In this document: positions 13,289-60,040 of the stretch, in pieces
Numbering within the stretch: the first letter of the stretch is position 1
Layout: each line of letters begins with the position of its first letter
The notes under the pieces: model-generated
Told to the model about the DNA's origin: nothing
The model's input: only the letters and a program-made list of their open reading frames with translations
Database searches by the model: none
Position numbers and translations under genes: made by a program
Assembly: GCA_944324315.1 (NCBI GenBank)
Contig: CALUVW010000005.1
Coordinates: 14,927 to 78,926 of the forward strand
Direction of reading: 5' to 3'
Source: Candidatus Gastranaerophilales bacterium
GTDB taxonomy: Bacteria > Cyanobacteriota > Vampirovibrionia > Gastranaerophilales > Gastranaerophilaceae
Length of the DNA: 64,000 bases

Positions 13289-15298
13289 ATGAATGAGCTA
13301 CTTAACAGGTTAAAAAACAGTATCAATACCCAGATACTGAATAAAGTAAACAGCACACTATTGGAACAATATAAATTTGTTCCAATTAGTGTTAAAGATA
13401 ATTTCCTTTTTGTAGCAATAAATTCTACCTCTGATAAAGATGTTATAAACCTTAAACTGAAAGAGTTTTATCCCCAACAGATAAAATTTATACAGGTGCC
13501 CGATCAGGACTTGCTGGATTTAATTGAAAACATAAAATCTGATATGCAAAAATCAGGCCCTGACGATGGTACATCAAAGCAGGTCAGACTCGGAGAACTT
13601 TTAGTTCAAAAAGGTTATATCAATGATGTTCAATTGCTGCAGGCTCTGGCTGAGAGTAAAAGACAAAAAATTCCTATAGGTTCTACTCTTTTTAAACTCG
13701 GATTTATTTCGCTTGATCAACTTAAAGAAATCTTGCATCTTCAAACGGGTTATGATCTTGTAACTCCTGAACAGCTTGCGTCTCAGGCTAAATTTATAAA
13801 AATTCTTCCGGAAGATTTTATCAAAACAAATAAAATTATTCCGATATCTTCTGACGGCAAGACTCTTATTCTTGGTGTTGTTACCCCTGTTAAACCGGAT
13901 ATTCTTAAAGATATTATTTATTTGACAGGACAAAATCCAAAACAGCTTTTGATGACTCATTACGAGTTTGAAAACTCGTTAAACACATTTTTCAGTGAAC
14001 AGAAAAAGGAAACTGAAAAAGTTATCAAAGAAATCGAAAGTGAAGTTGAAGAGCTTGAAGTTGAAGAATCTTTGTCTGATATGGTTGATAAACAGCTGAA
14101 AGATTCAACCGGTTCAGTTGCAAAATTCGTAAACCAGATTATTACAAATGCGATTGACAATAAAGTATCAGATATCCACATAGAACCAAGATTGACAGGG
14201 TATATCGTAAGATACAGAAAAGACGGTATGCTGCAAAAAGTTCTTGATATTCCGCCAAAAGTTGAAACCTCGGTTATTGCACGTTTTAAGGTTTTGTCAA
14301 GAATGAACATCGCAGAACACAGACGACCTCAAGACGGTACGTTTTCCATAAAGTATAAAAACGGATCTTATGACTTCCGTATAAATACTCTTCCTGTTTC
14401 CGGTAAAGAAAAAGTCTGTATTCGTGTACTTGCTCCTGCAGTAAGTTTGAATGCCGAAGATAAAAATATTAAGTTAGTTGGCGGAACTGATGAAGATATT
14501 GCTAAAATTAAAAATATGGTAAGTTGTCCAAACGGTATTATTCTTACATCCGGTCCTACCGGTTCTGGTAAAACAACTACTTTGTATTCGGTATTAAAAA
14601 GTTTGAATGACGAAGATGTTAACATTACTACAATTGAGGACCCGATAGAAATTAAACTTGAAGGTATTAACCAGTCACAGATTAATGCAAAAGCCGGTAT
14701 TACATTCGCATCCTGTATGCGTGCTATCTTAAGACAAGACCCGGATATTATCCTTGTTGGTGAAATTCGTGACTACGAAACATTAGAGATTGCGATATCC
14801 GCGGCATTGACAGGTCACCTTGTATTAAGTACCGTTCACACAAACTCTGCAGCCGCAACAGTTACCCGTTTGATTGAAATGGGAGCAAAAGATTATCTCG
14901 TATCATCAACACTATCAGGGGTTATTGCTCAACGTCTGGTCAGAAAACTTTGTGATGATTGTAAAGAAGAATATTTCGCAAGTCATGAAGAAGCAAGGCA
15001 AATAATCGCAAATGAAGATGAAATTCAAGAATTTATGAAAAAACCGATTTATCGTGCAAAAGGTTGTAATAAATGCGGATTTACCGGTTATAAAGGCCGA
15101 CTTGGCGTATATGAAATTATGACAATTAATAAAGAAATTAAAAAGTTAATTGCAAAGGGTGCTCATGATTTGGAAATTGAAGAATCTGCAGTTAGACATG
15201 GCATGAGGACACTTAATCAATCATGTATCAGCCATATACTTAATGGCATGACAACAATTTCTGAATTTGTAAGGGTACTCGGTGTTGTTAACGAATAG
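13289..15298 (+). CDS. pilB: GspE/PilB-family type IV pilus / T2SS assembly ATPase
   Basis: Walker A GPTGSGKTT, Asp and His boxes, and a tetracysteine motif CDDC...CNKC. It also has T2SSE_N-like N-terminal domains. Confidence 0.9.
   Translation: MNELLNRLKNSINTQILNKVNSTLLEQYKFVPISVKDNFLFVAINSTSDKDVINLKLKEFYPQQIKFIQVPDQDLLDLIENIKSDMQKSGPDDGTSKQVRLGELLVQKGYINDVQLLQALAESKRQKIPIGSTLFKLGFISLDQLKEILHLQTGYDLVTPEQLASQAKFIKILPEDFIKTNKIIPISSDGKTLILGVVTPVKPDILKDIIYLTGQNPKQLLMTHYEFENSLNTFFSEQKKETEKVIKEIESEVEELEVEESLSDMVDKQLKDSTGSVAKFVNQIITNAIDNKVSDIHIEPRLTGYIVRYRKDGMLQKVLDIPPKVETSVIARFKVLSRMNIAEHRRPQDGTFSIKYKNGSYDFRINTLPVSGKEKVCIRVLAPAVSLNAEDKNIKLVGGTDEDIAKIKNMVSCPNGIILTSGPTGSGKTTTLYSVLKSLNDEDVNITTIEDPIEIKLEGINQSQINAKAGITFASCMRAILRQDPDIILVGEIRDYETLEIAISAALTGHLVLSTVHTNSAAATVTRLIEMGAKDYLVSSTLSGVIAQRLVRKLCDDCKEEYFASHEEARQIIANEDEIQEFMKKPIYRAKGCNKCGFTGYKGRLGVYEIMTINKEIKKLIAKGAHDLEIEESAVRHGMRTLNQSCISHILNGMTTISEFVRVLGVVNE
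13586..13744 (+). other. MshEN-like tandem motif (candidate c-di-GMP-binding region) within the pilus ATPase
   Basis: The two motifs are RLGELLVQKGYINDVQLLQALAES and IGSTLFKLGFISLDQLKEILHLQ. Both follow the RLGxxLLxxGLIxxxxLxxxLxxQ pattern described for MshE-type N-domains. Confidence 0.5.
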
Positions 15299-17690: not shown

Positions 17691-18326
17691 ATGAAAAAAG
17701 GGTTTACGTTAGCTGAAGTTCTGATAACACTCGGTATTATAGGCGTAGTAGCTTCAATAACCATGACGTCGTTGATTGCAGAGCATCAAAAGTTGGTGAC
17801 AGTTACAAAATTGAAAAAAGCTTATAACGTCTTAAATAATGCTATTAGATTGGCAGAAGTTGAACATGGAGATAAGTCTCAATGGGGTGATTCTAATAAC
17901 GATGAATGTGGACTTTATATTTATAATCATTATGTTAGAGGTAAATTAAAAGTTCTTAAAGATGTAGAAGATACTGGCTCTAATTGTCAATCTGATCCTG
18001 AAATTGTATTAGCTGATGGTATTGTTCTGGATTCTTTTATTAATTGGAGTCCCTTAAGTCGGGACGCTTTCACTGTTGATATAAATGGGGCAGCGGGGCC
18101 TAATAAAGTGGGTAGAGATAGATTTGACTTTTTCTATTCAAGTAAATATGGATATGCGCCTGCTGGTTTTTGTGATCATCCGGAATGGTCACCTTCCGAT
18201 TGTGTCGCAACAGATGGTAGTAGGAATGATGTGAAAAATGCCGGATGTAATGAGCGAAATAAGTTTTTATGTGGTGCATTAATTATGATGGATGGGTGGC
18301 AAATAAAAGACGATTATCCATGGTAG
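17691..18326 (+). CDS. Prepilin-type N-terminal cleavage/methylation domain protein with a classical short leader
   Basis: MKKG|FTLAEVLITLGIIGVVASITM, and a C-terminal VDINGAAGPNKVGRDRFDFF motif shared with the other paralogues. AGGAGG SD. Confidence 0.85.
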   Translation: MKKGFTLAEVLITLGIIGVVASITMTSLIAEHQKLVTVTKLKKAYNVLNNAIRLAEVEHGDKSQWGDSNNDECGLYIYNHYVRGKLKVLKDVEDTGSNCQSDPEIVLADGIVLDSFINWSPLSRDAFTVDINGAAGPNKVGRDRFDFFYSSKYGYAPAGFCDHPEWSPSDCVATDGSRNDVKNAGCNERNKFLCGALIMMDGWQIKDDYPW

Positions 18327-19721: not shown

Positions 19722-21182
19722 ATGATGGAATTTGTAGAAAATAGAGAAGTTGAAAAAGAACAATTAAAGGCTATTTTTAGGGATATGTTGAAATATTCTC
19801 CCTCTAAAATTATCGGCATGCTTGGCAATGCAATAATTGTTCCTGTGTATACAAGCCTGTTGTCTCCTGAACAGTATGGGCTATATTCGCTTTCTATTGC
19901 ATTATTGTCATTCTTGTGCATTATATTTTCTGATTGGGTAGGGCTTTCCGGACTAAGGTTTTTTAAGCATCATCAAATGACCCAGGATATGCCGAAATAT
20001 TTAACTACTCTTGTTACGATGCTTGTATCAAACATATTTCTTATGTTTATAATTGCATTTGTGTTCAGGCACAATTTTTACAGTTTTTTCAATATTCCTG
20101 TTAAATATTTCTTTGCTATTCTTGTGTTAATAATTCCTGTTGCAATAAGAGCTTTGTTATTTCAGCTTTTAAGAGCACAGCTTAAATCAATGTCTTTTAC
20201 ATTATCAACAATTATTAATCAGTTTTTAACAATACTTTTATCAATATTTTTTGTGAAATTTTTCCATTTAGGTGCAATTGCACTCCTTTTGGGTATGGGT
20301 GTTTCAATTTCTTTAATAGATTTACTCTTGATTTACCAGAGTAATATTTTGTCATGGTTCAAGCTGCAAAAAATTGAGTGGAATTCAGTTTTGCCGATTA
20401 TGAAATACGGGGTTCCTATTGCAGCTACTTCTTTGAGCGCGTGGATAATTAATCAGAGCAATAAATTTATTATGAACAGTATTCATGGTTTTTCTCAGGT
20501 CGGAATTGTCGGGGTTGCATACGGTTTGACCTTGCCTTTATTAATGACAATTTTTTCAATTATAACGGTTGCTGCCATACCTAGAATTATCAACATGTAT
20601 GAAGAGAAAATTGATGTAAGGCCTTTAATTTCCAGATTTACAGGATATTATATTCTCGTTTCTTTACCTGTAATCACAGTAATTTCTTTATATGCAACAG
20701 ATTATGTCCAGATGTTATCGTCTAATGACAAATTTCTTGATGCATTTCAGCTTATACCTTACTTTGCATTCGGAACATTTTTTATGGCAATAACTGACTA
20801 CACAACGTTGCAATATCATCTTGCAAACAAAACTTATATTGATTTTATCATTAAGTTAACATCTGGAATTTTGAATGTCGGTTTAAATATATTGTTAATT
20901 CCTAAATATGGTTTGGTTGGTGTTGGTATGGCAACGCTTGGAGCAAATTTCCTATATTTTCTTTTGAGTGTTATTATTGTTTTGCCGGGCTTAAGATTAA
21001 TTTTTCCGTTTTTAACAGTAAAAAGGATGATAATAGCAGCATTACCGTCGGCTGTAATGTATTATGTATTCTCAAAATATGTTCATATTCCGGCACTATT
21101 TGAAATGTTATTGTTAATAGCACTATTTTATCTGCTTTATTGGGTTTTAGCTGATAAATTAATGAAACGCAGTGCTAATTAA
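19722..21182 (+). CDS. MOP-superfamily oligosaccharide/polysaccharide flippase (Wzx-like)
   Basis: 486 aa, a profile of about 12-14 TM segments, and a polysaccharide-biosynthesis-protein-like N-terminus. Confidence 0.65.
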   Translation: MMEFVENREVEKEQLKAIFRDMLKYSPSKIIGMLGNAIIVPVYTSLLSPEQYGLYSLSIALLSFLCIIFSDWVGLSGLRFFKHHQMTQDMPKYLTTLVTMLVSNIFLMFIIAFVFRHNFYSFFNIPVKYFFAILVLIIPVAIRALLFQLLRAQLKSMSFTLSTIINQFLTILLSIFFVKFFHLGAIALLLGMGVSISLIDLLLIYQSNILSWFKLQKIEWNSVLPIMKYGVPIAATSLSAWIINQSNKFIMNSIHGFSQVGIVGVAYGLTLPLLMTIFSIITVAAIPRIINMYEEKIDVRPLISRFTGYYILVSLPVITVISLYATDYVQMLSSNDKFLDAFQLIPYFAFGTFFMAITDYTTLQYHLANKTYIDFIIKLTSGILNVGLNILLIPKYGLVGVGMATLGANFLYFLLSVIIVLPGLRLIFPFLTVKRMIIAALPSAVMYYVFSKYVHIPALFEMLLLIALFYLLYWVLADKLMKRSAN

Positions 21183-21371
21183 TAATTCTTTACATTAGTT
21201 AATAATTTGGCAACAAAAATTCTTTACAGATTTTAATTTTATAAATTGTGTTGTGTGTAATTTTATTAAGTATTTGTAATATTAAATGGTAAAACAAATT
21301 TGCTCTTGGTAAAATTATATAACCGGACGATTACAATATAATTAAAATAAAATTTGAAAGGAAATAGAAGT

Positions 21372-24300
21372 ATGATTCAAGTTAAAGCAGGTAAAAGAAA
21401 AGTTGTTGCATCGGCATTAACGTTTTGTTTCTTTTTGCAGCAGTCATTTTGCTTGCAGGTCGTGGCAACAAATATTACCGGTGTGGAAGGTGTAAACGGT
21501 GTATTTAATATAGATCCGACTGCAACTAACGGAGATATCGGCTTTAGAAAATATAATGACTTTAACTTGAGTCAGGGTGATATTGCTAATTTGATTTTCC
21601 ATGATTCAACAAGTGGCAAAGATATTTCTACGTTTGTAAACCTTGTTGACAATACAATTAATATCCGAGGGATTGTTAATGCAGTAAATGCCGCAGGAAA
21701 TATTGACGGCAGCGGGCATGCTGTTTTTGTTTCTCCAAATGGTATGGTTGTAGGAGCAAGCGGGGTTTTAAATGTAGGCTCTTTGTCTATTTTGACTCCG
21801 GAGCAGAGTTCATATGAAAAATATAAAAGTGATTTACGGAATCCTACTCTTATCAAAGATTACGAATCAAGATTGAGCACTCCAGGTAACGGTAATGTTT
21901 CTATCAACGGCAATGTTCTTGCACGTGATTTTATAGATATAAATGCAGCAAATGTAAATATCGGTAATAATGCTATTTTACTGGCTGGAGTAAAGGATAA
22001 TACAGTTCTATCATCCGGTGCACAAGCTGAAAGATTGTTTAATCAATTGGTTAACACTGATAATGTAAGTAACGCTAACAATCTGGCAAATGAAAACGGA
22101 AGCATTGTGATAAAGTCTTACGGTGCAAATGGTGGAACAAATGTTGCAGGAACTATGAAAAATTTTGGAGCCGGTAATATTCAAATTACTAATTCAGGCT
22201 CAAGAGGCGTAAATATTTCAGGAACAACAACAAATTTTAACGGAAATACGTTAATAGAGAATACAAACGGTGGAGTTAGCGTTTCCGGTAATGTAGAAAA
22301 TTCAGGTAATGCCGGATCTATAAAAATAAATAACAGTGGTGCTGAAGGTGTTAATATTTCCGGTGAGCTTTCTAACTATAATACTGCTAAGACATCCGGC
22401 AGTATAGGTGAAATTTCTATAAGAAATACCGGTTCTAAAGGTATATATGTTTCTGGAACTGTTTCAAATTCATCGAAGGGGAAGGAACAACAGACTAATA
22501 TCCTTAATTATAATGAAAATTCTGGTATAAAAATTTCTAATACCGGAAAAGTTGTAACTGATGGTGATGTAAATATAATTAATAACGGTACTGATGGTAT
22601 TAATGTAAATGGTATAGTTAACGGGAATAATATTAATATAGATAATCAAAATTCTAATGTTGTATTAGGTTACAATACCGGTAAAGATTATTTGAACGCT
22701 TCTAATAATGTTAATATCTCAGTTGTTAACGGAAACTTGCTAAATTACGGTACAACAGCAAATCTTATTAAAGCCGGTAATAATTTGAATATTGATGTTC
22801 AAAATGGTTCTATAGGTAAAGAAGTAGGACCTTGTGACGGTGGTATTTGTACTGGTATAGGACCTGATGCAAGAGATTTGACAAAATCTGTTAACATCGC
22901 AGTAGACGGCAAGGTTAGCGCTGAAAGTACTAAAGGCTCAAATAATTCTTTAATTAACCTTGCAAGCATAGACAAAAATATGAATGTTGATCGGATAAAA
23001 GCTGACGGCAGAGTTATTTTGCTTGCAGACAGTTCCGTAAAAGGTTCAAAAGCTTATGATATCGTTAATGCTTCTACAGATTCTACAAAACCGAATGTCG
23101 AAGGTGCAGGTATTTCAATAATTTCAAGCGGTAATATCGGTTCTAAAGACAATGCGCTCACTTTCAGACAGACTCAAGGAGTTTTCGGAAATGTTGATTC
23201 TAACTTGAATTATTCGTCAGATGCAAAATACGGTGTTGATATGCTTGCTATTAAAGATATTAACATTAAAGGACTGGATTCTGCAGACGGGAAAAAACTT
23301 GATACAAACGTATGCGGATTGATTTCACGTGAAGGTTCAATAAATGCAGAATTTTCAGGAGATACATATATAAGAGAAACTACTGCTGCTAACAATATAA
23401 ATATTGTTAACCGTGGCAAAGAAATTTATATAAGCAATTTAGGTGAAGTTCCAACCTATCCTCAAGATTATTTCGGTGCAAATGGAAATATAAATCCTGA
23501 TAAAGTTACAATTTCAGCATTAGACTTAGGAACATCATGGCCTAATAATCCTGCTGACTCAAGAATAATAATTAAGAATGCTGTTGTTGACGGTTTGGGG
23601 CTTGGCAGACCGTCACATGAACAGGATTTGACTCTTGTTGCAGATAATATTTATGCTGGCGGTTATTATTTTAATATGGGTAAAAATAGAGGACAAACAA
23701 GTGAAGATCCTTTAAGATTTAACCCTTCAAGTATAACTATTGATAACAGAACAAATAAAATTACGACATCTGATGGTGAAACGGTTTCCATAAGAGCAAA
23801 AGCGGTAAGACCTGATGATGTTACTGCAATTGGGAAAAATGAAGATGAACGTAATTATTATTATGGGGGTAGCTCTCAAGGTAAAGATGACGGATATGAT
23901 GGTGTAAACGGTGGAAATGATCCTGATAAACAAGGTTCAGAGGAAGATGATGATAACCTCGTAGTACCTAAGGAAGATGATCCTGTTATTCCCGTAGATG
24001 ATGATTCCGATTCAGACTCGGATACCGATACGGATACCGACACTGATACAGATATTGATACTGACACCGATACGGATACAGATACAGATGTCGATACCGA
24101 TACAGATAACGATAACGATAATGATAATGACAGTGATTCAGATACTGATATGGATACCGATACGGATAATGACACTGATTCAGATACCGACACTGATATA
24201 GATACGGATACGGATTCCGATTCAGACTCGGACACTGATACTGATACCGACACTGATACAGATATTGATACTGACACCGATACGGATACAGATACAGATA

Positions 24301-25292
24301 CCGATAATGATTCAGATACCGATAATGATTCAGACTCTGATACTGACAATGACACGGATAATGATAATGATTCGGATAATGACATGGATAGTGATACCGA
24401 TAATGATACTGACAATGACACAGATACCGATATGGATACAGATACGGACACTGACACTGATAATGATACCGATACAGATAATGACAGTGACTCGGATACT
24501 GATATAGACAGTGATACCGATACAGACATGGATACAGATTCAGATACTGATACTGACAATGACAGCGACAGTGATAGTGATAGTGATAGTGATAGTGATA
24601 ACGATTCCGATAGTGATACTGACTCGGATACAGATACAGACACTGATACTGATACCGATACGGATGTAGATACAGATACTGATAGTGACACTGATACAGA
24701 TTCAGACACGGATACTGACAATGACAGTGATAATGATACCGACAATGACAATGACAATGATAACGACAATGATAACGATATGGATTCAGATACTGACATT
24801 GATTCCGATTCGGATACCGACACAGACATAGATACGGATTCCGATTCTGATTCAGATTCTGACGATGATGATGATATTAGTATTCCTAATGAAGATATGG
24901 GAAAATATACATATAAACAGCGTGTTGTCGATTATAATGTAAATTCTATTGACAAACGTCAGTATATGAGATTTGATACAAGGGATAATCGTAATCCTGT
25001 TCATCTTGCAGAAAATACTCAAATTGAATCCTTATTAGATATATCGCGCGGCGGTATTGCAGTAACTCATAAAAACGGTTTGAAAGTCGGTGATGTTGTT
25101 CCTGTTCACATTTCATACGGTAATTTGGATATTAATGCAGATGTGAAAATAGTTTCAGCTAATGATAGACGGGCAGGAGCAGAGTTTATTAACCTTGACC
25201 AAGCTACTGCAAACAAGATTCTTTATATGAATATAATGCTTGAAGAGCAAACTGCAGCTAGAGCAAAAGATAATCTTTCATATTTAAAATAG
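21372..25292 (+). CDS. Giant exoprotein-like protein: signal peptide + TPS (haemagglutination-activity) domain + beta-helical repeats + acidic D-T/D-S/D-N repeat + C-terminal PilZ domain
   Basis: It has a signal-like N-terminus and a TPS-type motif ([24 protein letters not shown]). Gly/Asn-rich repeats such as NISG..NNSG follow, then about 290 aa of Asp-X dipeptides. The PilZ motifs are RQYMR (RxxxR) and DISRGG (DxSxxG). The ATG at 21372 is preferred over the TTG at 21354. Confidence 0.8.
23995..24876 (+). repeat. Coding low-complexity repeat (GAY-ACN/WSN/AAY)n encoding (D-T/S/N/I/M)n
   Basis: About 880 nt of near-periodic 6-nt units, read directly. Confidence 0.9.
24951..25255 (+). other. 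PilZ (c-di-GMP receptor) domain at the C-terminus of the TPS-domain protein
   Basis: KRQYMRFD...[11 protein letters not shown] gives the canonical RxxxR and D/NxSxxG motifs at typical spacing. Confidence 0.75.
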
Positions 25293-25315: not shown

Positions 25316-25354
25316 AAAACAGGAAACTAACTTAATTGGAAGTTTCCTGTTTTA
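25316..25354. terminator. Bidirectional intrinsic terminator between convergent genes
   Basis: Stem CAGGAAACT / AGTTTCCTG, flanked by an A-run and a T-run. Confidence 0.6.
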
Positions 25355-27121
25355 TACCATAGCACCTGTTGAAAGTCTGTAGTTCCTTATCCTTTGGAAT
25401 CTGCTGTCCTGACTTAAATCCCATTGAGGGGCGTATGTTCGATTATTATTGGCAGTGTAGTTGGTTTGAGTATTTTGAGAATTAAATCTTGCAGCTACTG
25501 ATGTTAAGCCGTTGCCTAATTTTTCCCAATCAAATTTTTGACTGGATTTAATTGTATTTGTTGCTGTATTGCTAAATTTTGAAACTGTTTTGTTCCCAAT
25601 TTCTTTTCTAGCTTTATCATCAAGCCCGCTGACAACTCCATTTTCTATTTTACCATGGGCATTTGTGACTGCAGATGAGAAAGTTGTTCTTGTTTGATCT
25701 GCGGCATTATTAACCGCTGTAAAGTTTGTTTCGCTAAGTTGACCGTTTTTAATATCGGAGAGCATATCTTTTGCATCAAGTTCACCCTTTGCCATCTTTT
25801 CTTGAAGTTGCGAACTTATAGATTTTTTCATTTCTTTTTCGCTCAAGCCGCCTAGCTGTTCTGTTGTCATTTCACTTACAGCATCTTTAGCAGCAGTATT
25901 TGATGCAAGTTTTTGAGTTGCCTGGTTTGCTTGTTCATTAATTTGATCAAATGTTTTTCCTAAATTTTTTGTTGACTTGCCGGCTGCAACTCCTGTCTGG
26001 ATAGCTGCAGCTGCACTTTGTAAAGCACCTGCCAGATTTCCGTCAGCTGCGTATGCTGCGGTTTTAGTAACATTTGCGGCAGCTTGTCCGTAGTTACCTA
26101 CCATTTCTGTTACTTTGCCGACTTTTTGCATAACATTTCCGGCTGCAATTAAGGCTGCTCCTGCACCGGCTGCCCAGGTCATTGATGAACCAAGTGCTAC
26201 CAAACCGACACCTGCATAATTAACTGCCTGCCCTGTCATTGCCACAAGTGCACTGATTTGGTCTACTTTATCTGCGACTTCTATAACTTTGCTGGTTGTA
26301 GATTGATTTGCTTCAATTTGTTTTGTGTTTGTTTGTTGAACTTTTATAAACTGGTTGTTAGTTTTCTGCATTTTTGTAATAGTTCTGGAAGAACTTCTTT
26401 GCAGAGAATAAATTTGCTGCCCGTTTGATTGAAGTAAGTTAATTTTTGTATTTAAAAAACTTGAAAGTTCATTTATTCTGTCTTGGTTTGGATTTGTTTG
26501 AGTACCATCATCATTTATAGTAAATGCGTTGGTAGACATAAGCGAGTCAAGTTCATTTTGGGCATTTTCAACTTCTGTTTGTGTTTCTTCGCTTTCTCGA
26601 ACAAGTTTTTCAAGAGTTTTATTGTCTTTTTCAAGAGCCTTTTCTTCTTTTTTTAACCTTGTCGTAAATGTTTTTTCATCTTTGGCGATTTGTTTATCTA
26701 GTTTTTGTGCATTGGTGCTAAAGCTGTTTACAGTTAATGTATTATTTTCTGTTTCAGCAGTAAGTGAGCTTACCTCATCACTGCTTTGTTCTGCAGCTGC
26801 GGCTGCAGCTCTTCCGTCAGCCGCATTATCAATACTCGTTATATTGTCAATTGAGCTTGTTCCGTCTCCGCCATCGGTGCTGTTGTCGGGATTTGGATTT
26901 GTAGTTGCTCTGGTGTGTAATTCTGTTAAAGTTCTTGCGGTATTCAAATCGCTGAGAGTTGTCGGATTTGTTGTTGTTCTTGCATTAGGGGCGTTAAAAA
27001 TTGAACCTGTCATTGTCATGTAATCAGGTTTTCTCGCGGCAGCAGCACTGGCTGCTTGTTTTTGCATTGCCAGTTTGACTAATTCAACCGGATTTCTGTT
27101 GTTTACGTTAGAAACGCCCAT
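25352..27121 (-). CDS. Hypothetical 589-aa protein: Thr/Asn-rich N-terminus, coiled coil, central Gly/Ala-rich hydrophobic hairpin
   Basis: No recognisable catalytic motif. It has a heptad-like KEEKALEKDNKTLEKLVRESEE region and a hydrophobic segment AGVGLVALGSSMTWAAGAGAALIAAG. Confidence 0.6.
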   Translation of the reverse strand: MGVSNVNNRNPVELVKLAMQKQAASAAAARKPDYMTMTGSIFNAPNARTTTNPTTLSDLNTARTLTELHTRATTNPNPDNSTDGGDGTSSIDNITSIDNAADGRAAAAAAEQSSDEVSSLTAETENNTLTVNSFSTNAQKLDKQIAKDEKTFTTRLKKEEKALEKDNKTLEKLVRESEETQTEVENAQNELDSLMSTNAFTINDDGTQTNPNQDRINELSSFLNTKINLLQSNGQQIYSLQRSSSRTITKMQKTNNQFIKVQQTNTKQIEANQSTTSKVIEVADKVDQISALVAMTGQAVNYAGVGLVALGSSMTWAAGAGAALIAAGNVMQKVGKVTEMVGNYGQAAANVTKTAAYAADGNLAGALQSAAAAIQTGVAAGKSTKNLGKTFDQINEQANQATQKLASNTAAKDAVSEMTTEQLGGLSEKEMKKSISSQLQEKMAKGELDAKDMLSDIKNGQLSETNFTAVNNAADQTRTTFSSAVTNAHGKIENGVVSGLDDKARKEIGNKTVSKFSNTATNTIKSSQKFDWEKLGNGLTSVAARFNSQNTQTNYTANNNRTYAPQWDLSQDSRFQRIRNYRLSTGAMV

Positions 27122-28492: not shown

Positions 28493-29272
28493 TTGGCAGA
28501 AGTTCTCATAACCCTCGGCATAATTGGAGTAGTTGCCGCTATGACAATGCCGAGTTTGATTACTAATTACCAGAAAAAGGTCTGGACTGATCAGCTAAAA
28601 AAAACTTATTCTACCTTGAATGAAGCATACCGTCAGACTTTAGCACACGCAGGCTGTACAGATGCAATAAGCTGCGGGTTTATGGATGTTGGGAGCTCTA
28701 TACTTCCAGAATTTAGCACTGATTTTTATATTAAATTATTAAATAACTTGAAGCATGAAAATTTATTATTAGTTCCAAATATGAATAATATGACTTCAGA
28801 AGAATTGAATGATTTTAGTGCAAATGTAAATCAGGAACTTGGAAATTATTATACAACTTTAACCTTTAAATTAATGAAAAATAATCGTCAAGTAGATCTT
28901 TATGATTTGATTCCATCTTACTATGTTGAAAAAGGTGGATTTTTTGCGAATACAACTGACGGAGCAATGATAGCATTCTTTAATCCTGGTATCTTGATAG
29001 ATGTCAACGGAAGTAAGGGGCCAAATGTTGTAGGCAGAGATGTTTTTATGTTTTCTGCAACTGATAATGCTATAGTACCAGAATCTTCTATTGCTTATAG
29101 GAATTTTCTTTCGAGAATTTATCCTAAAGCAGCTGATGAATCCGGCCTTTCAGATACACTGCTTGACTATAATGAATTGAAAAGTAAATGTTTATCTTCT
29201 ACCAGCGCTTCTACTTCAGCTGTATGCTGTGCAGATATAATTGTGTTTGATGGCTGGGAGATGAAGTATTAA
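28493..29272 (+). CDS. Prepilin-type N-terminal domain protein without a conventional in-frame start; frame open upstream to 28280
   Basis: IRRAA|FTLAEVLITLGIIGVVAAMTMP is encoded from 28472. The only track start (TTG 28493) lies inside the mature FTLAEV motif. No ATG, GTG or TTG occurs in frame between 28280 and 28492. C-terminal motif IDVNGSKGPNVVGRDVFMF. Confidence 0.7.
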   Translation: MAEVLITLGIIGVVAAMTMPSLITNYQKKVWTDQLKKTYSTLNEAYRQTLAHAGCTDAISCGFMDVGSSILPEFSTDFYIKLLNNLKHENLLLVPNMNNMTSEELNDFSANVNQELGNYYTTLTFKLMKNNRQVDLYDLIPSYYVEKGGFFANTTDGAMIAFFNPGILIDVNGSKGPNVVGRDVFMFSATDNAIVPESSIAYRNFLSRIYPKAADESGLSDTLLDYNELKSKCLSSTSASTSAVCCADIIVFDGWEMKY

Positions 29273-41876: not shown

Positions 41877-42704
41877 ATGGGTATTAATCAATACCCACCC
41901 CTGCCCTCCCTAATAAGGGAGGGTGTTAAGCCCGTAGATACCTCGAATAACATTCGTCGAGCAGCTTTTACTTTGGCAGAAGTTCTCATCACCCTTGGAA
42001 TAATTGGTGTTGTTGCCGCTATGACAATGCCTGTACTTATAAATAATTATCAAAAACACGCTTTGAAAAATCAATTCAAAGTAGCATATTCATTGTTAAA
42101 TCAGGCATTACTATCGGCCATAGAGAAAAACGGCGGTGCATTTAACTGCTGGTATTGGAAAACTATTCCGTATCCTGGTGCAGTATGCAAAAAGTGGGAT
42201 GGCAGTGCCTGTGCTGAGTACTCTATGCCTGACGGTTCTCCATTACCTGCAGATTATAACGGAAAATTTGACGAATGTGCAAATATGTATAATGCATTAC
42301 ATTCTGAATTGAAAGTCGTTTCTGAATGTAAAAATAATTCGACCAATCATTGTGTTCCTGAATATAAAGGAAAAGATGTTGTAAATGCTGATCCTGACAA
42401 AACTATGACGGAAATATTAGGTGCGTGTCCGAATTTAGCAACAAGTAATTTGAATAGGTTTTCTTACAAAATTTTATCTAATGGTATAATAACCGGGTAC
42501 GAGCGGTCAGGCTGGGTCTTTATTGTAGACGTAAACGGAAGTAGAGGCCCGAATAAATGGGGTTATGATGTTTTTCTTTTTGCCCCACAACTTCATGGTT
42601 CCAATAGTTCAGGAATGATTATTTTTGGCGGTATGAAAGGGAATGGTTGTAATTTAAAAGAACCGGGAGGCTATTATACACATGAAATGCTAGAAAATTA
42701 TTAA
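41877..42704 (+). CDS. Prepilin-type N-terminal domain protein with a long leader
   Basis: MGINQYPPLPSLIREGVKPVDTSNNIRRAA|FTLAEVLITLGIIGVVAAMTMP. The first 160 nt or so are near-identical to 2391-2560. C-terminal motif VDVNGSRGPNKWGYDVFLF. Confidence 0.8.
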   Translation: MGINQYPPLPSLIREGVKPVDTSNNIRRAAFTLAEVLITLGIIGVVAAMTMPVLINNYQKHALKNQFKVAYSLLNQALLSAIEKNGGAFNCWYWKTIPYPGAVCKKWDGSACAEYSMPDGSPLPADYNGKFDECANMYNALHSELKVVSECKNNSTNHCVPEYKGKDVVNADPDKTMTEILGACPNLATSNLNRFSYKILSNGIITGYERSGWVFIVDVNGSRGPNKWGYDVFLFAPQLHGSNSSGMIIFGGMKGNGCNLKEPGGYYTHEMLENY

Positions 42705-49362: not shown

Positions 49363-52300
49363 TTATTTAACCCATTTGAAACTTCTTACATAATCAAATC
49401 CGTTGATGTCACCGTTAATATCAACTTTAAAGATTCGGTAAATGTTAGTAGCATCTTTTATACCCGGAATTTTGCTGATTTCTGTTTGAAGAATCAAGCG
49501 TTCTGTAGCATCGTTTATTCCTGGGATTGTATTAAACAGTGTGTTTAAAGATGCATTTTTAATCTTTCCGAATACAGTTGTTATATTTTTCGTTAAACTT
49601 CCGTATATTTTCATATCCGCAATTGAGGTGACAATATTATATGAACCGTTCATATACATATTCAAGTCGTTTCCGTTTGAATATATGTTAATTCTGTCTG
49701 CTATACCGTCTGCAATATGAATATCTCCGTATATACTTTCAAAATCCCCTGTCTTTAAAGGAGTTACAAGGTCTATAAGGCTGTTAATGGAAAGCCCTGT
49801 AAATCCGCCTTTAAGCAGATTGCCGGCTTTTAGCAGATATTCAAGAGAACCTAGTTTAGGCATTCTTCCGTCTGCTATCTTAAAAGAACCTTCTCCTGAA
49901 AGTGTTTTAAAGCAGCTTTCCTGACTGTCTCCCTTACAAGTAAGTTTAAAATCACCGTTTACCGAACCGTATACCTGCCCCTTCAAATCAAATAAAGCTT
50001 CTGACATTATTAAAGCATTTGCTTTATCAAGATTTATATCTAAATTGGTTATATGATTTTTTAAATTATGTTTGAAAGTACCTGTAACAGTTCCTTCAGC
50101 AAGATTAAATTTAAAGTTTTTAACATTTATAACATTATCTTTATTTATGCTTAAATTAGTTGTAAAGTTGTCTGCATTAATGTTACGAACTTTAATTTTA
50201 TTTGCCTCTATACTGCCATTATTTATAATTAGTTGTTTTATATCAAAAGGTTGTGCGATATTTGAGCTGTAAGACGGATTTTTAGTCGCTTCTGCTTCAA
50301 TATCTATAATTGTGTCCGTAATTTTGTTTATGTTAAGATCTGCAAGCTTTAATTTAAAGTTTTCTATTGTATATGGGGGTGTGAGTTTATTTTGCATCAC
50401 AGCATCAAGGTATATGTCATTTGTAAGCACAGTACCTTTACTTGTAATATATAATTTATCCTGTTTAAAATCAAGATTTATATCTCTTATTGTTGAATCG
50501 AAAAATGGAATATCTATGCTTGTTATATCAAGTTTCCCTTGAATTTTAGGGTTTATTGACGTTCCGTTTAAAACAAGATCTGATGAGAAAACTCCCTGTT
50601 TCATAAAAGGTTTTCTGAATATTATGTTAAATATTTTTGCATCGGTAGGAGTTTGGGTTTTTATTCTGAAATTGTTAAAGCCGGCATTGTTATTGTTCAA
50701 AAGAGTTATAGTCCCTGAAGCATTAAGCTGAGGCTTGATATAGGGTTTGTTATTTTGTGAAGTTATTGTTTTTTCATACTGTAAATTATTTATTTTAATC
50801 CTATTTGGAGAGTAATTGTAATTAACAGTAATTTTAACAGGATTTTCTGGATCGCCGATAGAGGCTCCCATGTAATACAAACTGGAATTTTCTGCAATAT
50901 TTAATGTGGATTTTGAAGTCAAGTTATTTTCAGTGCCCCTTACTTTTGCCGATAATATTGTATCTCCCTTTAATTTTATCGGGTATAGAGCGTTGTTATT
51001 AAAAAATTGGTCAAAAAATTCCTGAGTCGGTTTTGCATTTATATATAAATCAAGATTAGGATTTTTTTGAACATTGGCAATTTTTCCGTCAATAAATAAA
51101 GGCATTTCTCCAAGTTTTGCATTAAATTTATTAATATTCAAAGTATTGTTTTTCAAAAGTAAATTTCCGCTGTTAACGGTCAATTTCATATTTTTGGGTT
51201 TGTAAAGAATATTTATGTCATCGAGTTTTGTATATGCATTCAGATAATTGTTTCGAATTTTTGCCGATAAATTAACGTTACCGTTTAAAAAATCTATGTC
51301 TTTAAAAGTTTGCGCTGTTTGCGGCGGAAGAATATATGTTAAGGCTTTGTCATTTATTAAATTCAAATCAAGAGAATTAATTTGACAGTTTCCGTTGACA
51401 ATTCGTTGATTGGAAAACATATCAGATACATTCAGCGAGATATTAAACGGACTTTTTTTGAATGAACCCCTTAAAAGCGGAAGTTTGAAATTAGAATTAT
51501 TCAGTTCGTATGTACTGTTGTCAACTATTATAGCGCTTTTTGCACCGTGATTTGAATAAATTTTCCCTTTAAGAAAAACCTTATCAAAGTTTATTTTATC
51601 AATATTCCCCTCATATCTTGCTGTAAAACTTGTATTAATTGTGCCGAAGTCATTCGCATAAGGGATTTTTGTTCCTGAAGGAAGAGTTTTTAACCCATCT
51701 TTCAGGTTAAATTTTTCTGATACAATTTGAGTTTTGCAATTATTATCCTTGATTCTGCCTGTAATATTAAGCTTTGATGTTCCGAGAGCAGATTTTAGAC
51801 TGAAATCTGCATCCATATTATTGAAATTAATTGTTCCCGAAGTTTTTGAAATTGAAGCAGGGATATTTTTTATTTTTATTGTATTTGAAAAAAGATCAAT
51901 TTTTCCTTTTGCAAAAAGATTTTTGTTGAACACAATGTCTTTCGGGTCTTTTACTTTTCCTGTAAGGTTTATTGCAAGATTTACCAAACCTTTGCCGTTT
52001 TCAATGGGAGAAATAAGTTTTTGAATATCTTTAAGCATCGGGGATGTATTTATAATTTTTAATAATGAATCCAGTTCCTGCTTGTGCGTTAAGACTTCAA
52101 AATTTAACTCTCCGCTTAATGAACATGTTCCCTTTACAGAAACCGGTTTTCCGTTAAGTTTTGCGGATTTTGTTTGAAAAAATGTGTTTTGATTATCAAA
52201 ATCTAATGTTCCGGAGCCGTTTGTAAGCGTCATATTATGTATATCAAGAAAAGACACTGTTGCATTTTTAAAACGGAATTGCCCCCAGCCGTGCGGATTT

Positions 52301-53814
52301 TTACGTGTACCTATTACATGAAGATTAATACCGCCTTTTCCTTTAATGTCCATAATCGGTACAGGTCCGAGATCAAAGTGTAATATTTCATGAAGCGGAT
52401 TTAATACAATTTGAGCTGTTTTTAAATCAACATTATTTGTACTTGTTATATTCAAGTCAGCATATTTTTCATTGTAAAGATTAATAGGACCTTTTACGTA
52501 TACGGTTTGATCGGGACTTGTCGGAACAGTTACATCTATGTTAGTTTTATCTTTGTTAAATGCAAGTTTAATAACAGCTTTTTCTGCATTCGGGATTGGT
52601 TTTACCATATAAGCGTTAGAGATTAAGAGATTCCCGAACACATCAGGGTAATCTGCTTTTCCTTTAATTTCTAAATTCCCTGCTACATCTCCCCAAAAAC
52701 CTGTCTGTTTAAGTAAAAGCAGATTAAAATCCGGTGATAAATCAGGTTCACCCGGCAGCAGTGAAATAATATTTTCAGCTTTTGATTTGTTAACAGTGAC
52801 ATTCAAATCTAAATAAGGGAATTTTGCATTAAGGTTAGTAATTCTTCCTCTTGTAAAAGCATCAATCCCTTTGCTGGATATACGCATCTCATTTATTTCC
52901 AGACCATTTTTAATAGTATTTACATCTATTTTAATTACAATTTTATCTTTGGAATAAATTGATGCAGAATTATCTTTTTTCCAAATCCCCAGGTTATTGA
53001 TATATAAATTTGTTTTTATTTGTTTATGTTTGTCTTGAGTAATTTTAGTATTTGCCGTGAAATTTATAATGCCTGATAATGAATCAATTTTGTTTTTTGA
53101 TATTGCTTTTGCATATTCAGAAAAATCAGAAAGGTCAAGGTTTACTATATGGCCGGAAATATCGCATTGGTCATCTGATAATTTAGTTAAAGGAAGTTTG
53201 AGAGTCAAATCAGCTTTTATATACGCTTTTTTATTTCCTGCTGTTAAATCGGCAATAGTTGAGAGGTTAATGTGTTTATCAAGTTTAAAATCATTAATAT
53301 CAAGATATTTACCGTCAAGTTTTATTAATTTTTTTTGAATTTTGTCATCCAGATTTATATTGTAACTGTTTATATTAACATTAGCATGTTTAAGTTTAAC
53401 AGGCATGTTCGTATTCCGGACAATCAAATATTGCCCGAGTTTCAACTTATAATCCTTGTCAAGAACAAGATTTGTTGTAATATTTTCAGCAGAAAGATGA
53501 TGAATGTCAAGATTTTTTAGTAAAATCGGAAGCAGTCTTATATTAATGCAGGGTTTCTCAATATAAAATGCTTTTGAGTTATCATTGTTTAATATGGAAA
53601 AGTTGTCTGCCTTAAGCCAAATTGAAGGTATTAGTCCCATTTTCAAAGACGGATTTGAAAGTTGTATTTTAAATCCTGTTTGTTCTAAAACTGTTTGTTC
53701 AATTAATGCAGCTCTTTTGGGTAGATTTACAATGGCAGGTATCCCGAAATAATAGGCTGCATATAAAACCGTCAATGAAAATAATATTATTAAGTATTTT
53801 AAATTCCTGCCCAT
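49363..53814 (-). CDS. AsmA/TamB-like giant outer-membrane biogenesis protein
   Basis: 1483 aa. It has a single N-terminal TM anchor and a long Asn/Lys-rich beta-rich body. The C-terminal region (GDFESIYGDIHIADGIADRINIYSNGNDLNMYMNGSYN) resembles AsmA-like C-terminal domains. Confidence 0.55.
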   Translation of the reverse strand: MGRNLKYLIILFSLTVLYAAYYFGIPAIVNLPKRAALIEQTVLEQTGFKIQLSNPSLKMGLIPSIWLKADNFSILNNDNSKAFYIEKPCINIRLLPILLKNLDIHHLSAENITTNLVLDKDYKLKLGQYLIVRNTNMPVKLKHANVNINSYNINLDDKIQKKLIKLDGKYLDINDFKLDKHINLSTIADLTAGNKKAYIKADLTLKLPLTKLSDDQCDISGHIVNLDLSDFSEYAKAISKNKIDSLSGIINFTANTKITQDKHKQIKTNLYINNLGIWKKDNSASIYSKDKIVIKIDVNTIKNGLEINEMRISSKGIDAFTRGRITNLNAKFPYLDLNVTVNKSKAENIISLLPGEPDLSPDFNLLLLKQTGFWGDVAGNLEIKGKADYPDVFGNLLISNAYMVKPIPNAEKAVIKLAFNKDKTNIDVTVPTSPDQTVYVKGPINLYNEKYADLNITSTNNVDLKTAQIVLNPLHEILHFDLGPVPIMDIKGKGGINLHVIGTRKNPHGWGQFRFKNATVSFLDIHNMTLTNGSGTLDFDNQNTFFQTKSAKLNGKPVSVKGTCSLSGELNFEVLTHKQELDSLLKIINTSPMLKDIQKLISPIENGKGLVNLAINLTGKVKDPKDIVFNKNLFAKGKIDLFSNTIKIKNIPASISKTSGTINFNNMDADFSLKSALGTSKLNITGRIKDNNCKTQIVSEKFNLKDGLKTLPSGTKIPYANDFGTINTSFTARYEGNIDKINFDKVFLKGKIYSNHGAKSAIIVDNSTYELNNSNFKLPLLRGSFKKSPFNISLNVSDMFSNQRIVNGNCQINSLDLNLINDKALTYILPPQTAQTFKDIDFLNGNVNLSAKIRNNYLNAYTKLDDINILYKPKNMKLTVNSGNLLLKNNTLNINKFNAKLGEMPLFIDGKIANVQKNPNLDLYINAKPTQEFFDQFFNNNALYPIKLKGDTILSAKVRGTENNLTSKSTLNIAENSSLYYMGASIGDPENPVKITVNYNYSPNRIKINNLQYEKTITSQNNKPYIKPQLNASGTITLLNNNNAGFNNFRIKTQTPTDAKIFNIIFRKPFMKQGVFSSDLVLNGTSINPKIQGKLDITSIDIPFFDSTIRDINLDFKQDKLYITSKGTVLTNDIYLDAVMQNKLTPPYTIENFKLKLADLNINKITDTIIDIEAEATKNPSYSSNIAQPFDIKQLIINNGSIEANKIKVRNINADNFTTNLSINKDNVINVKNFKFNLAEGTVTGTFKHNLKNHITNLDINLDKANALIMSEALFDLKGQVYGSVNGDFKLTCKGDSQESCFKTLSGEGSFKIADGRMPKLGSLEYLLKAGNLLKGGFTGLSINSLIDLVTPLKTGDFESIYGDIHIADGIADRINIYSNGNDLNMYMNGSYNIVTSIADMKIYGSLTKNITTVFGKIKNASLNTLFNTIPGINDATERLILQTEISKIPGIKDATNIYRIFKVDINGDINGFDYVRSFKWVK

Positions 53815-59197: not shown

Positions 59198-60040
59198 CTA
59201 TTTACATTTAGTTTTTGTTCCCCATTGTAAATCATCGCAGTGAAGATAATCCATATTTTCATTTTGTATGACCCATGCGGTACAATTACTGGCTAAAGCC
59301 CTGTTGAAACTACAAGTTTGTGAAAAATCTGGATGTTCTTGTTGTGTTCCGGTTGGCAGTATTCTGTCTTTTTTCATTTCAAACACAAAAAAGTCTTTGC
59401 CAAATTGGTTTGGTCCCCTGTAATATCCGTTTGTATCTACAAATATTTCTGCACAGTTGGTGGCATTGCTATATAGACCAATATAGTCTGTTGAGCATTT
59501 TTTAAATCCGGGGCTGACATGGAATATAATTAAAGTACCATCTTCTAAAACTAGATGTTTGTAGGAACCTTGAAAATTGTAAGCTATATGCGGAGTTCCA
59601 TTTAAATATAAATATTTTTTTGAACCAATGCAGGTATTTATTTTTTTGCAGTCATCAGCTATTTTAAAATATGGTTTAAAATACTGATTAAGTAGTACTT
59701 GTGAACCTTCTTTTGAATCCTCATCTTTTAAATCCCATTGATCAACTGTCATTCCAGTGTCATTAATCGCACTTACAAGTGCCTGGCTTAAAATAGAATA
59801 TACTTTTTTCAATTTGGCAACGGTTTCTTTTTCTCTATGATCTTGAATAAGAGATGGTATTGTCATTGATGCAACAACACCGATGATACCGAGGGTGATA
59901 AGAACTTCAGACAAAGTGAATGCAAATTTTTTTAGTCGATAAGACGTTAAGACGTTAGGACGATAAATGCGTTTCGGGGAATTACTCTTCCCCTCCCTTA
60001 TCAGGGAGGGGGGTAGGGGTGGGTATTGATCAAAACCCAT
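59198..60040 (-). CDS. Prepilin-type N-terminal domain protein with a long leader (cassette copy 4)
   Basis: MGFDQYPPLPPSLIREGKSNSPKRIYRPNVLTSYRLKKFA|FTLSEVLITLGIIGVVASMTIP. C-terminal motif VDTNGYYRGPNQFGKDFFVFEM. Confidence 0.8.
   Translation of the reverse strand: MGFDQYPPLPPSLIREGKSNSPKRIYRPNVLTSYRLKKFAFTLSEVLITLGIIGVVASMTIPSLIQDHREKETVAKLKKVYSILSQALVSAINDTGMTVDQWDLKDEDSKEGSQVLLNQYFKPYFKIADDCKKINTCIGSKKYLYLNGTPHIAYNFQGSYKHLVLEDGTLIIFHVSPGFKKCSTDYIGLYSNATNCAEIFVDTNGYYRGPNQFGKDFFVFEMKKDRILPTGTQQEHPDFSQTCSFNRALASNCTAWVIQNENMDYLHCDDLQWGTKTKCK

Follow-up and report, generated by a model that had tools for sequence, protein, structure and literature searches.

Cargo proteins of two-partner secretion (TpsA proteins), among them FHA/FhaB, HMW1, HxuA, EtpA and Fusobacterium necrophorum LktA, have in common a signal peptide, a two-partner secretion (TPS) domain with an (N/S)PNG motif and a beta-helix. 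Here we describe a protein that has all three, encoded in a 64,000-nucleotide stretch of contig CALUVW010000005.1 (assembly GCA_944324315.1, Candidatus Gastranaerophilales bacterium), which as a whole we call the window. Its likeness to the known cargo extends to the ShlB/FhaC-type TpsB genes that lie beside its larger relatives. In contrast to the known cargo, however, the window protein ends in a PilZ domain, a cytoplasmic-type receptor of the second messenger cyclic di-GMP (c-di-GMP); an adjacent TpsB gene is missing, and its N-terminal domain represents a divergent LktA/FxxPxG subtype that, in this copy, escapes the Pfam TPS model.

Several described systems resemble this protein in part. 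The giant repeats-in-toxin (RTX) adhesins of the LapA type hold an N-terminal folded plug in the outer-membrane pore, and high c-di-GMP favours their retention; they differ from the window protein in their type I secretion, their opposite polarity (C-terminus first), a plug that is not a receptor and their release by proteolysis. In Pseudomonas aeruginosa the retention or release of the TpsA proteins CdrA and ExlA is set by cytoplasmic c-di-GMP, according to the summary contained in PMC8472254, which attributes the control of CdrA to LapD/LapG plus a C-terminal hook that stalls passage through TpsB and gives the route for the toxin ExlA as unknown. Whereas the CdrA/CdrB and ExlA/ExlB systems involve separate relay proteins across the inner membrane (for CdrA the receptor LapD and the protease LapG), the receptor is here inside the cargo. 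The canonical PilZ receptors (YcgR, MotI/DgrA, MapZ, Alg44 and the C-terminal domain of BcsA) show the same fold and both motifs; those, however, are cytoplasmic, and in Alg44 and BcsA the PilZ domain is set apart by transmembrane helices, whereas the window protein has no such helix and carries an export signal instead. The staphylococcal ClfA/B and SdrC/D/E proteins likewise have an acidic dipeptide repeat between a distal binding domain and a cell-proximal end, but the organism studied here is diderm and its protein is devoid of an LPXTG anchor, the likeness being one of composition and not of homology.

A literature search found no description of a PilZ domain on a secreted, periplasmic or TPS protein, and a term search of a PilZ survey preprint (10.1101/814665) yielded no secreted, periplasmic, signal-peptide, adhesin, hemagglutinin or extracellular context for it. 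The fusion of a TpsA protein to PilZ is new, as is the strict C-terminal position of the PilZ domain, and there is a substantial chance that the mechanism behind the fusion is new in kind.

A TpsA-like protein that ends in a PilZ domain

The open reading frame (ORF) occupies positions 21354..25292 of the + strand. Its ATG at 21372, with the purine stretch AAAGGAAA lying 8 bases before it, gives a product of 1306 amino acids with the following parts:

21372..25292 (stop codon counted), +: whole gene of the PilZ-ended TpsA-like adhesin, 1306 amino acids; from the ORF and from homologues with the same architecture down to 33% identity
21372..21467, +: Sec-type signal peptide, residues 1-32; KAGKRK n-region, hydrophobic core and a site between VVA and TN
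21468..22271, +: TPS-type secretion domain, about residues 33-300; from NF012204, family Pfam matches, hhalign and Foldseek
22272..23969, +: right-handed beta-helix shaft and C-terminal cap, residues 301-866; from an AlphaFold2 (AF2) model and invariant columns
22833-22850, 23850-23864 and 23946-23969, +: conserved shaft/cap motifs, namely the CDGGIC pair, RNYYY and DDDNLVVP
23970..24875, +: disordered acidic spacer, residues 867-1168; from composition and repeat analysis
24876..25289, +: PilZ module, residues 1169-1306 (N-terminal arm, beta-barrel, C-terminal helix); from Pfam, AF2 and Foldseek

The protein is a member of the TpsA/LktA superfamily of filamentous adhesins, with a canonical PilZ domain at its end. 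On the TpsA side, the Sec signal peptide, the TPS domain with an NPNG-type turn and an extended right-handed beta-helix of ~830 residues were all found. Signal peptides were judged by rule (charge, Kyte-Doolittle (KD) hydropathy and an AxA-like site). In 63 full-length members of the family there are on average 4.1 positive charges in the n-region, the h-region begins at about residue 11 with a mean 12-residue hydropathy (KD12) of 2.6, and a site of the AxA type comes next. An earlier note, made from the letters of the DNA, had called the N-terminal region a TPS domain with an (N/S)PNG(I/M) motif, which is the FVSPNG at residues 119-124 (nucleotides 21726-21743). The assignment is confirmed by NCBIfam, by Pfam matches at the level of the family, by profile comparison and by fold; the Pfam TPS model itself leaves the window copy unmatched even at E<=10, although it matches 16 of 28 family members (best E 2.9e-5). 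The NCBIfam model NF012204, for the N-terminal domain of LktA-family filamentous adhesins, scored 139.6 bits over residues 45-200 against a cutoff of 60, and hhalign aligned a profile of the family N-terminus with the TPS domain of EtpA at E 2.6e-4, with FVSPNG placed on LVNPNG. Sequence searches of the PDB with the N-terminus (a single sequence and two profiles) returned nothing relevant. In the AF2 model of residues 1-866, with a predicted local distance difference test (pLDDT) value of 88.9, short beta strands run continuously over residues 44-865, and the top PDB matches of this model in Foldseek were TpsA proteins, HxuA first (E 7e-5) and then EtpA, HMW1, HpmA and FHA; TM-scores for the long helix were low (0.24-0.29), E-values and match identities being mutually consistent.

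The C-terminal assignment made by the same note, of a PilZ domain, has held. Pfam PF07238 matched residues 1195-1283 with 34.9 bits (cutoff 22.5), and both signature motifs, RQYMR (RxxxR; residues 1196-1200, nucleotides 24957-24971) and DISRGG (D/NxSxxG; residues 1223-1228, nucleotides 25038-25055), lie where the note had put them, as does FVSPNG. The AF2 model of residues 1165-1306 (pLDDT 77.5) gave a six-stranded beta-barrel with a C-terminal helix, and Foldseek matched it at probability 1.00 to the PilZ/c-di-GMP complexes of MapZ, Alg44, YcgR, PA4608 and MotI; score, motifs and fold all speak for PilZ. Across 29 diverse homologues, whose identity to the window copy is 38-73%, residues R32, R36, S61 and G64 of the module never vary, and the binding residues are kept even in giant relatives with only 37-39% identity to it. 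Since ligand-contact residues are invariant over such deep divergence, we argue that ligand binding is selected, and the PilZ domain of the window protein is predicted to bind c-di-GMP.

Passenger and PilZ are joined by a spacer whose main part is a run of Asp-X dipeptides 283 residues long (residues 886-1168, nucleotides 24027-24875), with aspartate at 142 of 142 alternate positions. The whole spacer holds 152 D, 68 T, 38 S, 25 N, 1 K and 0 R, and its DNA is an imperfect in-frame repeat with a 6-bp period, 70% matches and zero indels. Among relatives the spacer sequence is hypervariable, consisting of DT, DS, DA or DN dipeptides, of PT/EP or PPPPGDDDD repeats, or of almost nothing. In 53 full-length members it measures 6-350 residues (median 83), about a third of the members having 6-40 residues, and lysine plus arginine make up 0.9% of the 6353 spacer residues; giants of 4864-6412 residues are essentially without a spacer. 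The NCBIfam models of Ser-Asp repeat adhesins covered the repeat only, with 110-161 bits against cutoffs of 999-2500, and membership in the MSCRAMM group (microbial surface components recognizing adhesive matrix molecules) was rejected on account of these scores and of the C-terminus, ...NLSYLK without LPXTG. A 317-residue antisense ORF (23876-24829, -) lies wholly inside the repeat and is a product of the 6-bp periodicity, not a gene.

Taken at face value, the sequence predicts export of the chain, as a signal peptide is present and a stop-transfer segment is not: in the 63 full-length members no membrane-spanning segment was found after residue 45 (maximum 19-residue hydropathy average, KD19, <=1.75). 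The paradox raised by the earlier note, that the two ends of the protein predict opposite cellular compartments, is real.

Relatives of the protein and the question of a TpsB partner

A search with residues 1-858 yielded 895 homologues, and most of the full-length ones, down to 33% identity, carry a Pfam PilZ domain. A regular-expression check for motifs, run on the best 120 of the 895, placed the PilZ motifs at the C-terminus in about 75; the remainder are fragments or belong to a PilZ-less clade of about 1271 residues. Species-representative genomes hold 488 relatives, nearly all in Candidatus Gastranaerophilales / Melainabacteria from gut metagenomes, and at least 20 assemblies have two copies each. 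The PilZ-ended adhesin marks a near-universal and often duplicated surface structure of the Gastranaerophilales, an uncultured lineage of the gut.

An exhaustive profile search with the PilZ module gave only 211 matches at E<=1e-3 among 1.84 billion representative proteins, and in every long match the module is the extreme C-terminus. The matches include proteins of 1600-2600 residues and eleven giants of 4864-6412 residues. All eleven have both PilZ motifs, and at their N-termini they show a signal peptide followed by a TPS-type xPxG motif near residues 80-130. The window protein aligns with two giants in three regions, the N-terminal domain (36-39% identity), the distal helix (30%) and PilZ (37-39%); judged by these alignments, it amounts to a giant in short form.

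The paralogue clade of about 1271 residues (P0098, P0104, P0112 and others; locus L006, 8001-11816) has the signal peptide, the TPS domain and the helix, stops just past the ...NRTGKMNIENLGSTPNT... region, and is devoid of cap, spacer and PilZ. This clade shows the PilZ module to be an addition to a secreted protein that is otherwise complete; PilZ is therefore an add-on regulator and not part of the export signal, and the clade provides a natural PilZ-less control.

Neighbourhoods were compared at 80 of the loci of the 488 relatives; the counts of loci reflect many related genomes and not independent events. In about 60 of the 80, which are separate assemblies, the gene is complete and gap-free with the order N-terminus, linker, PilZ. 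The earlier note had named an assembly chimera across the repeat as an observation that would overturn its reading; this was rejected, given these full-length copies, the absence of any N from the window and the imperfect, in-frame nature of the repeat. The idea that PilZ is a separate small gene was rejected as well, as the short proteins P0203, P0192 and P0153 are tails of long genes cut by 100-N scaffold gaps; in the other short PilZ proteins that were read, the first residue is an internal Met, located in the repeat or shortly before PilZ. Contigs often end inside the repeat. The repeat breaks most short-read assemblies, and public databases therefore contain truncated adhesins and small PilZ proteins that are spurious. 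Loci L088, L091, L098 and L099, for instance, have 100-N gaps in an Asp-Thr repeat, and a 'PilZ protein' of 105-260 residues is called there from an internal Met. Such short proteins (P0121-P0240) number dozens, the long ORF being absent from the gene calls at gapped loci; P0153 bears the NCBI name 'membrane PilZ domain protein Epm44 [Clostridium sp. CAG:967]'.

As the earlier note had stated for the immediate neighbours, no adjacent TpsB gene exists, and this holds well beyond the locus. No TpsB was found in the window (ORFs of at least 400 residues, with the TpsB of the lineage itself as a phmmer probe), in 1.23 Mb of flanks around the subfamily of about 1300 residues (phmmer with EtpB and the lineage TpsB), in the neighbourhoods of six relatives or among the recurrent neighbours at the 80 loci. 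Two of the giants, on the other hand, do have partners, and it was only through the giant relatives that the TpsB of the lineage came to light. Directly upstream of P0339 (6412 residues, Candidatus Gastranaerophilales, named 'PilZ domain-containing protein' by NCBI) lies a divergent gene for a TpsB of 672 residues, and P0374 (5387 residues) has one of 683 residues in the same divergent upstream position. Both proteins matched ShlB (74-77 bits) and POTRA_2 (57-69 bits), and Omp85 was also matched. The genus Candidatus Scatousia, in which the subfamily of about 1300 residues is also present, has a third pair of TpsB and giant. The TpsB family of the lineage, widespread in the order, counts 603 homologues at E<=1e-10. 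With ShlB-type TpsB genes standing beside giants, we conclude that the lineage uses two-partner secretion, with the PilZ-ended proteins as its predicted cargo. The window copy is an orphan that presumably borrows a TpsB encoded elsewhere. One explanation offered by the earlier note, a non-secreted use of a TPS-like fold, is now unlikely, because larger PilZ-ended relatives adjoin genuine TpsB genes.

Several other candidates for the export route were examined and set aside. The convergent gene downstream, for a protein of 589 residues, is not a hidden TpsB: the protein is without a signal peptide and matched none of Omp85, ShlB and POTRA. A recurrent neighbour of 905-950 residues in the second paralogue group was rejected as a transporter or conserved partner, as it lacks a Pfam match and is unlike the 589-residue protein. 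At 14 paralogue loci a TolC-like outer-membrane efflux protein (OEP) is encoded nearby; it was rejected as evidence for type I secretion, since it belongs to a convergent operon and the adhesins have N-terminal Sec signals. Export by the upstream cluster of secretin, ATPase and platform genes is unsupported, the synteny spanning housekeeping genes as well and being absent around paralogues. Export of a folded, ligand-loaded PilZ by twin-arginine translocation (Tat) was rejected too, because the n-regions read KRK, RKR or KRR with no consistent twin-arginine motif and because TPS transport needs unfolded chains.

Two observations on these loci stand apart. At L051 (10179-13508, -) and 13 similar loci the TolC-like efflux protein and an adenine deaminase lie convergent, downstream of the second paralogue group, and we judged these neighbours to be coincidental synteny. 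At L095 (about 666-800, -) a giant TpsA gene beside TpsB ends in a stretch that looks, by eye, like translated human Alu sequence (...PGWSRSLDLVIRPPRPPKVLGLQA), so that this contig looks chimeric with host DNA; the TpsA form of 4936 residues in L096 and L097 is the intact one.

Possible roles of the C-terminal PilZ domain

On our reading the gene encodes a predicted cargo of type Vb secretion, a surface fibre or adhesin of beta-helical build, which would pass the outer membrane through a TpsB encoded elsewhere in the genome. That c-di-GMP acts on this secreted cargo itself, with PilZ either arresting the last Sec step as a releasable tether or working outside the cytoplasm, is a possibility that we take seriously without calling it probable. 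The more specific proposal that we prefer is a tentative one and may well be wrong: the C-terminal PilZ would be a c-di-GMP-dependent checkpoint acting in cis on the final step of export.

Under this proposal Sec would thread the chain from its N- to its C-terminus, and PilZ, made last, would also be last at the translocon. At high c-di-GMP the RxxxR arm would clamp the ligand on the barrel, at the end where unfolding by the translocase must begin; ligand-bound PilZ would resist unfolding, the C-terminus would be held in the cytoplasm, and the fibre would be displayed yet held by the cell. At low c-di-GMP PilZ would unfold and pass, and the fibre would be completed and become releasable. The logic would be that of LapA/LapD/LapG and of CdrA, with high c-di-GMP retaining the adhesin, without a separate relay. 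To our knowledge c-di-GMP is solely a cytoplasmic signal; as Sec works from the N- to the C-terminus, the ligand site could therefore matter most simply as the C-terminus leaves. There being no hydrophobic segment between passenger and PilZ, the domain would stay inside only if it is not translocated.

The interest of such a checkpoint lies in the role of c-di-GMP, which decides between sticking and swimming. Its known routes to giant adhesins are indirect, through transcription or through the LapD/LapG protease relay, and no route could be shorter than a receptor built into the cargo. If true, arrest of the cargo, or sensing outside the cytoplasm, would be an action of a second messenger not previously described, and the former would be a natural case of ligand-gated translocation arrest, so far a laboratory device based on dihydrofolate reductase (DHFR) and methotrexate.

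Gated export and a plug, both put forward in the earlier note, stay among the suitable explanations. The membrane-spanning tether that it also listed stays there too, but not as a tether made by the linker alone: with linkers of 6-350 residues, and almost none in the giants, that cannot be general.

Several points weigh against a checkpoint at the Sec step. Both the final location of PilZ and its binding of c-di-GMP are predictions from sequence. A chain stalled in SecYEG is harmful in model bacteria. In the members with a short spacer and in the giants, a cytoplasmic PilZ needs the last ~150 residues of the passenger to lie unfolded across the envelope. PilZ without ligand is itself folded, and the ligand would therefore have to tip a threshold of stability. 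The spacer, poor in lysine and arginine, fits a protease-exposed extracellular stalk equally well, with PilZ then just under the outer membrane, and no TpsB was found in the window.

This last placement of PilZ leads to another explanation, an unlikely one in our estimation, by which PilZ crosses with the rest of the chain and refolds in the periplasm. There it would form a knob too bulky to pass the TpsB pore and so keep the fibre on the cell, much like the C-terminal hook of CdrA or the prodomain of FhaB. Retention of the C-terminus in the periplasm is the norm for TpsA proteins, including FhaB and CdiA. Such a stopper would accommodate every linker length, from 6 to about 550 residues, and the spacerless giants besides. 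The spacer would then be a variable extracellular stalk, and its hypervariable sequence, without lysine, arginine and aromatic residues, does resemble a protease-resistant stalk of the kind of the staphylococcal SD repeats. CdrA offers a parallel in the periplasmic retention of its C-terminus, as far as the summary in PMC8472254 describes it. What this explanation leaves unaccounted for, however, is the invariance of RxxxR and D/NxSxxG, for a plain plug needs no nucleotide site; the motifs would have to serve another ligand or folding. Moreover, we know of no periplasmic pool of c-di-GMP.

A role of PilZ before it leaves the cytoplasm appears improbable. Here the c-di-GMP-bound domain would bind a partner before or during export, and would then be exported and discarded; secretion would be timed or localised in this way, or display of the fibre would be coupled to exopolysaccharide production. 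Candidate partners are the neighbouring polysaccharide export machinery, SecA and a polar landmark. PilZ domains often act through ligand-dependent protein contacts, as in MapZ-CheR1, YcgR and MotI, all of them with folds matched by the window domain; an orthologous flippase adjoins PilZ-ended TpsA genes in three arrangements, and a MshEN-type motif is present in a flanking ATPase, by which the envelope machines here appear to be wired to c-di-GMP. Nevertheless, PilZ is made last, and a chain of 1300-6400 residues is probably by then mostly in transit, which leaves little room for control before export. In addition, the adjacency of the flippase may be inherited synteny, and the flippase is a candidate partner only.

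It is very unlikely that the exported PilZ senses c-di-GMP, or a related guanine nucleotide, released from neighbours or lysed cells, for example by stiffening or cross-linking biofilm fibres. No other model accepts the export signals and the intact ligand site alike without reinterpreting either, but a PilZ domain acting outside the cytoplasm is without known precedent, and in the gut any c-di-GMP outside cells would be both dilute and unstable. Finally, an artefact, that is, an ORF joined across the repeat or a PilZ that is a separate small gene, can be dismissed: many assemblies do break in the repeat or carry 100-N gaps, and dozens of 'PilZ proteins' of 105-260 residues are on record, but all three short-protein loci that were traced proved to be tails of long genes, and some 60 copies are gap-free.

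Neighbouring genes of the window

The window has a G+C content of 32-39% and holds genes for a secretin, a type IV pilus/type II secretion system (T2SS) ATPase, platform proteins and several pilin-like proteins, as well as the flagellar genes FliF and FlhA and one for a lipopolysaccharide (LPS) heptosyltransferase. Together, these genes mark the organism as a flagellated diderm. The genes that recur beside PilZ-ended adhesins include the following:

19722..21182, +: Wzx/HfsF-like polysaccharide flippase, directly upstream of the adhesin gene; from Pfam Polysacc_synt
L093 6262-7764, -, and L094 26184-27641, +: flippase orthologues beside PilZ-ended TpsA genes, giving three gene orders with that of the window

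The orthologues (54-62% identity) adjoin giant PilZ-ended TpsA genes in two arrangements other than that of the window, and at L093 an OmpH/Skp chaperone gene lies beside the flippase. This adjacency suggests a possible connection of the fibre with a surface polysaccharide, or with glycosylation of the spacer, which is rich in Thr and Ser.

On the other side of the adhesin gene, the convergent gene for the 589-residue protein (25352-27121, -) stays downstream of it in 33 related loci. Its product belongs to no Pfam or NCBIfam family; the N-terminal half is coiled-coil, and there is a hydrophobic segment rich in glycine and alanine (ALVAMTGQAVNYAGVGLVALGSSMTWAAGAGAALIAAG).

The type IV pilus/T2SS ATPase (13289-15298, +) has an N-terminal MshEN domain. 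The stretch RLGELLVQKGYINDVQLLQALAESKRQ (residues ~101-127) is close to the c-di-GMP-binding MshEN motif and is followed by a second similar stretch, and envelope machines beside the adhesin may thus also read c-di-GMP.

Four pilin-like genes with N-terminal methylation motifs were identified at 17691-18326, 28493-29272 and 41877-42704 (+) and at 59198-60040 (-), one of them with a DUF6613 domain. A protein of 1483 residues (49363-53814, -) had no Pfam match and, in NCBIfam, only a weak match to the YhdP family (23.7 bits, cutoff 519); it is a possible AsmA/TamB-like protein that spans the envelope.

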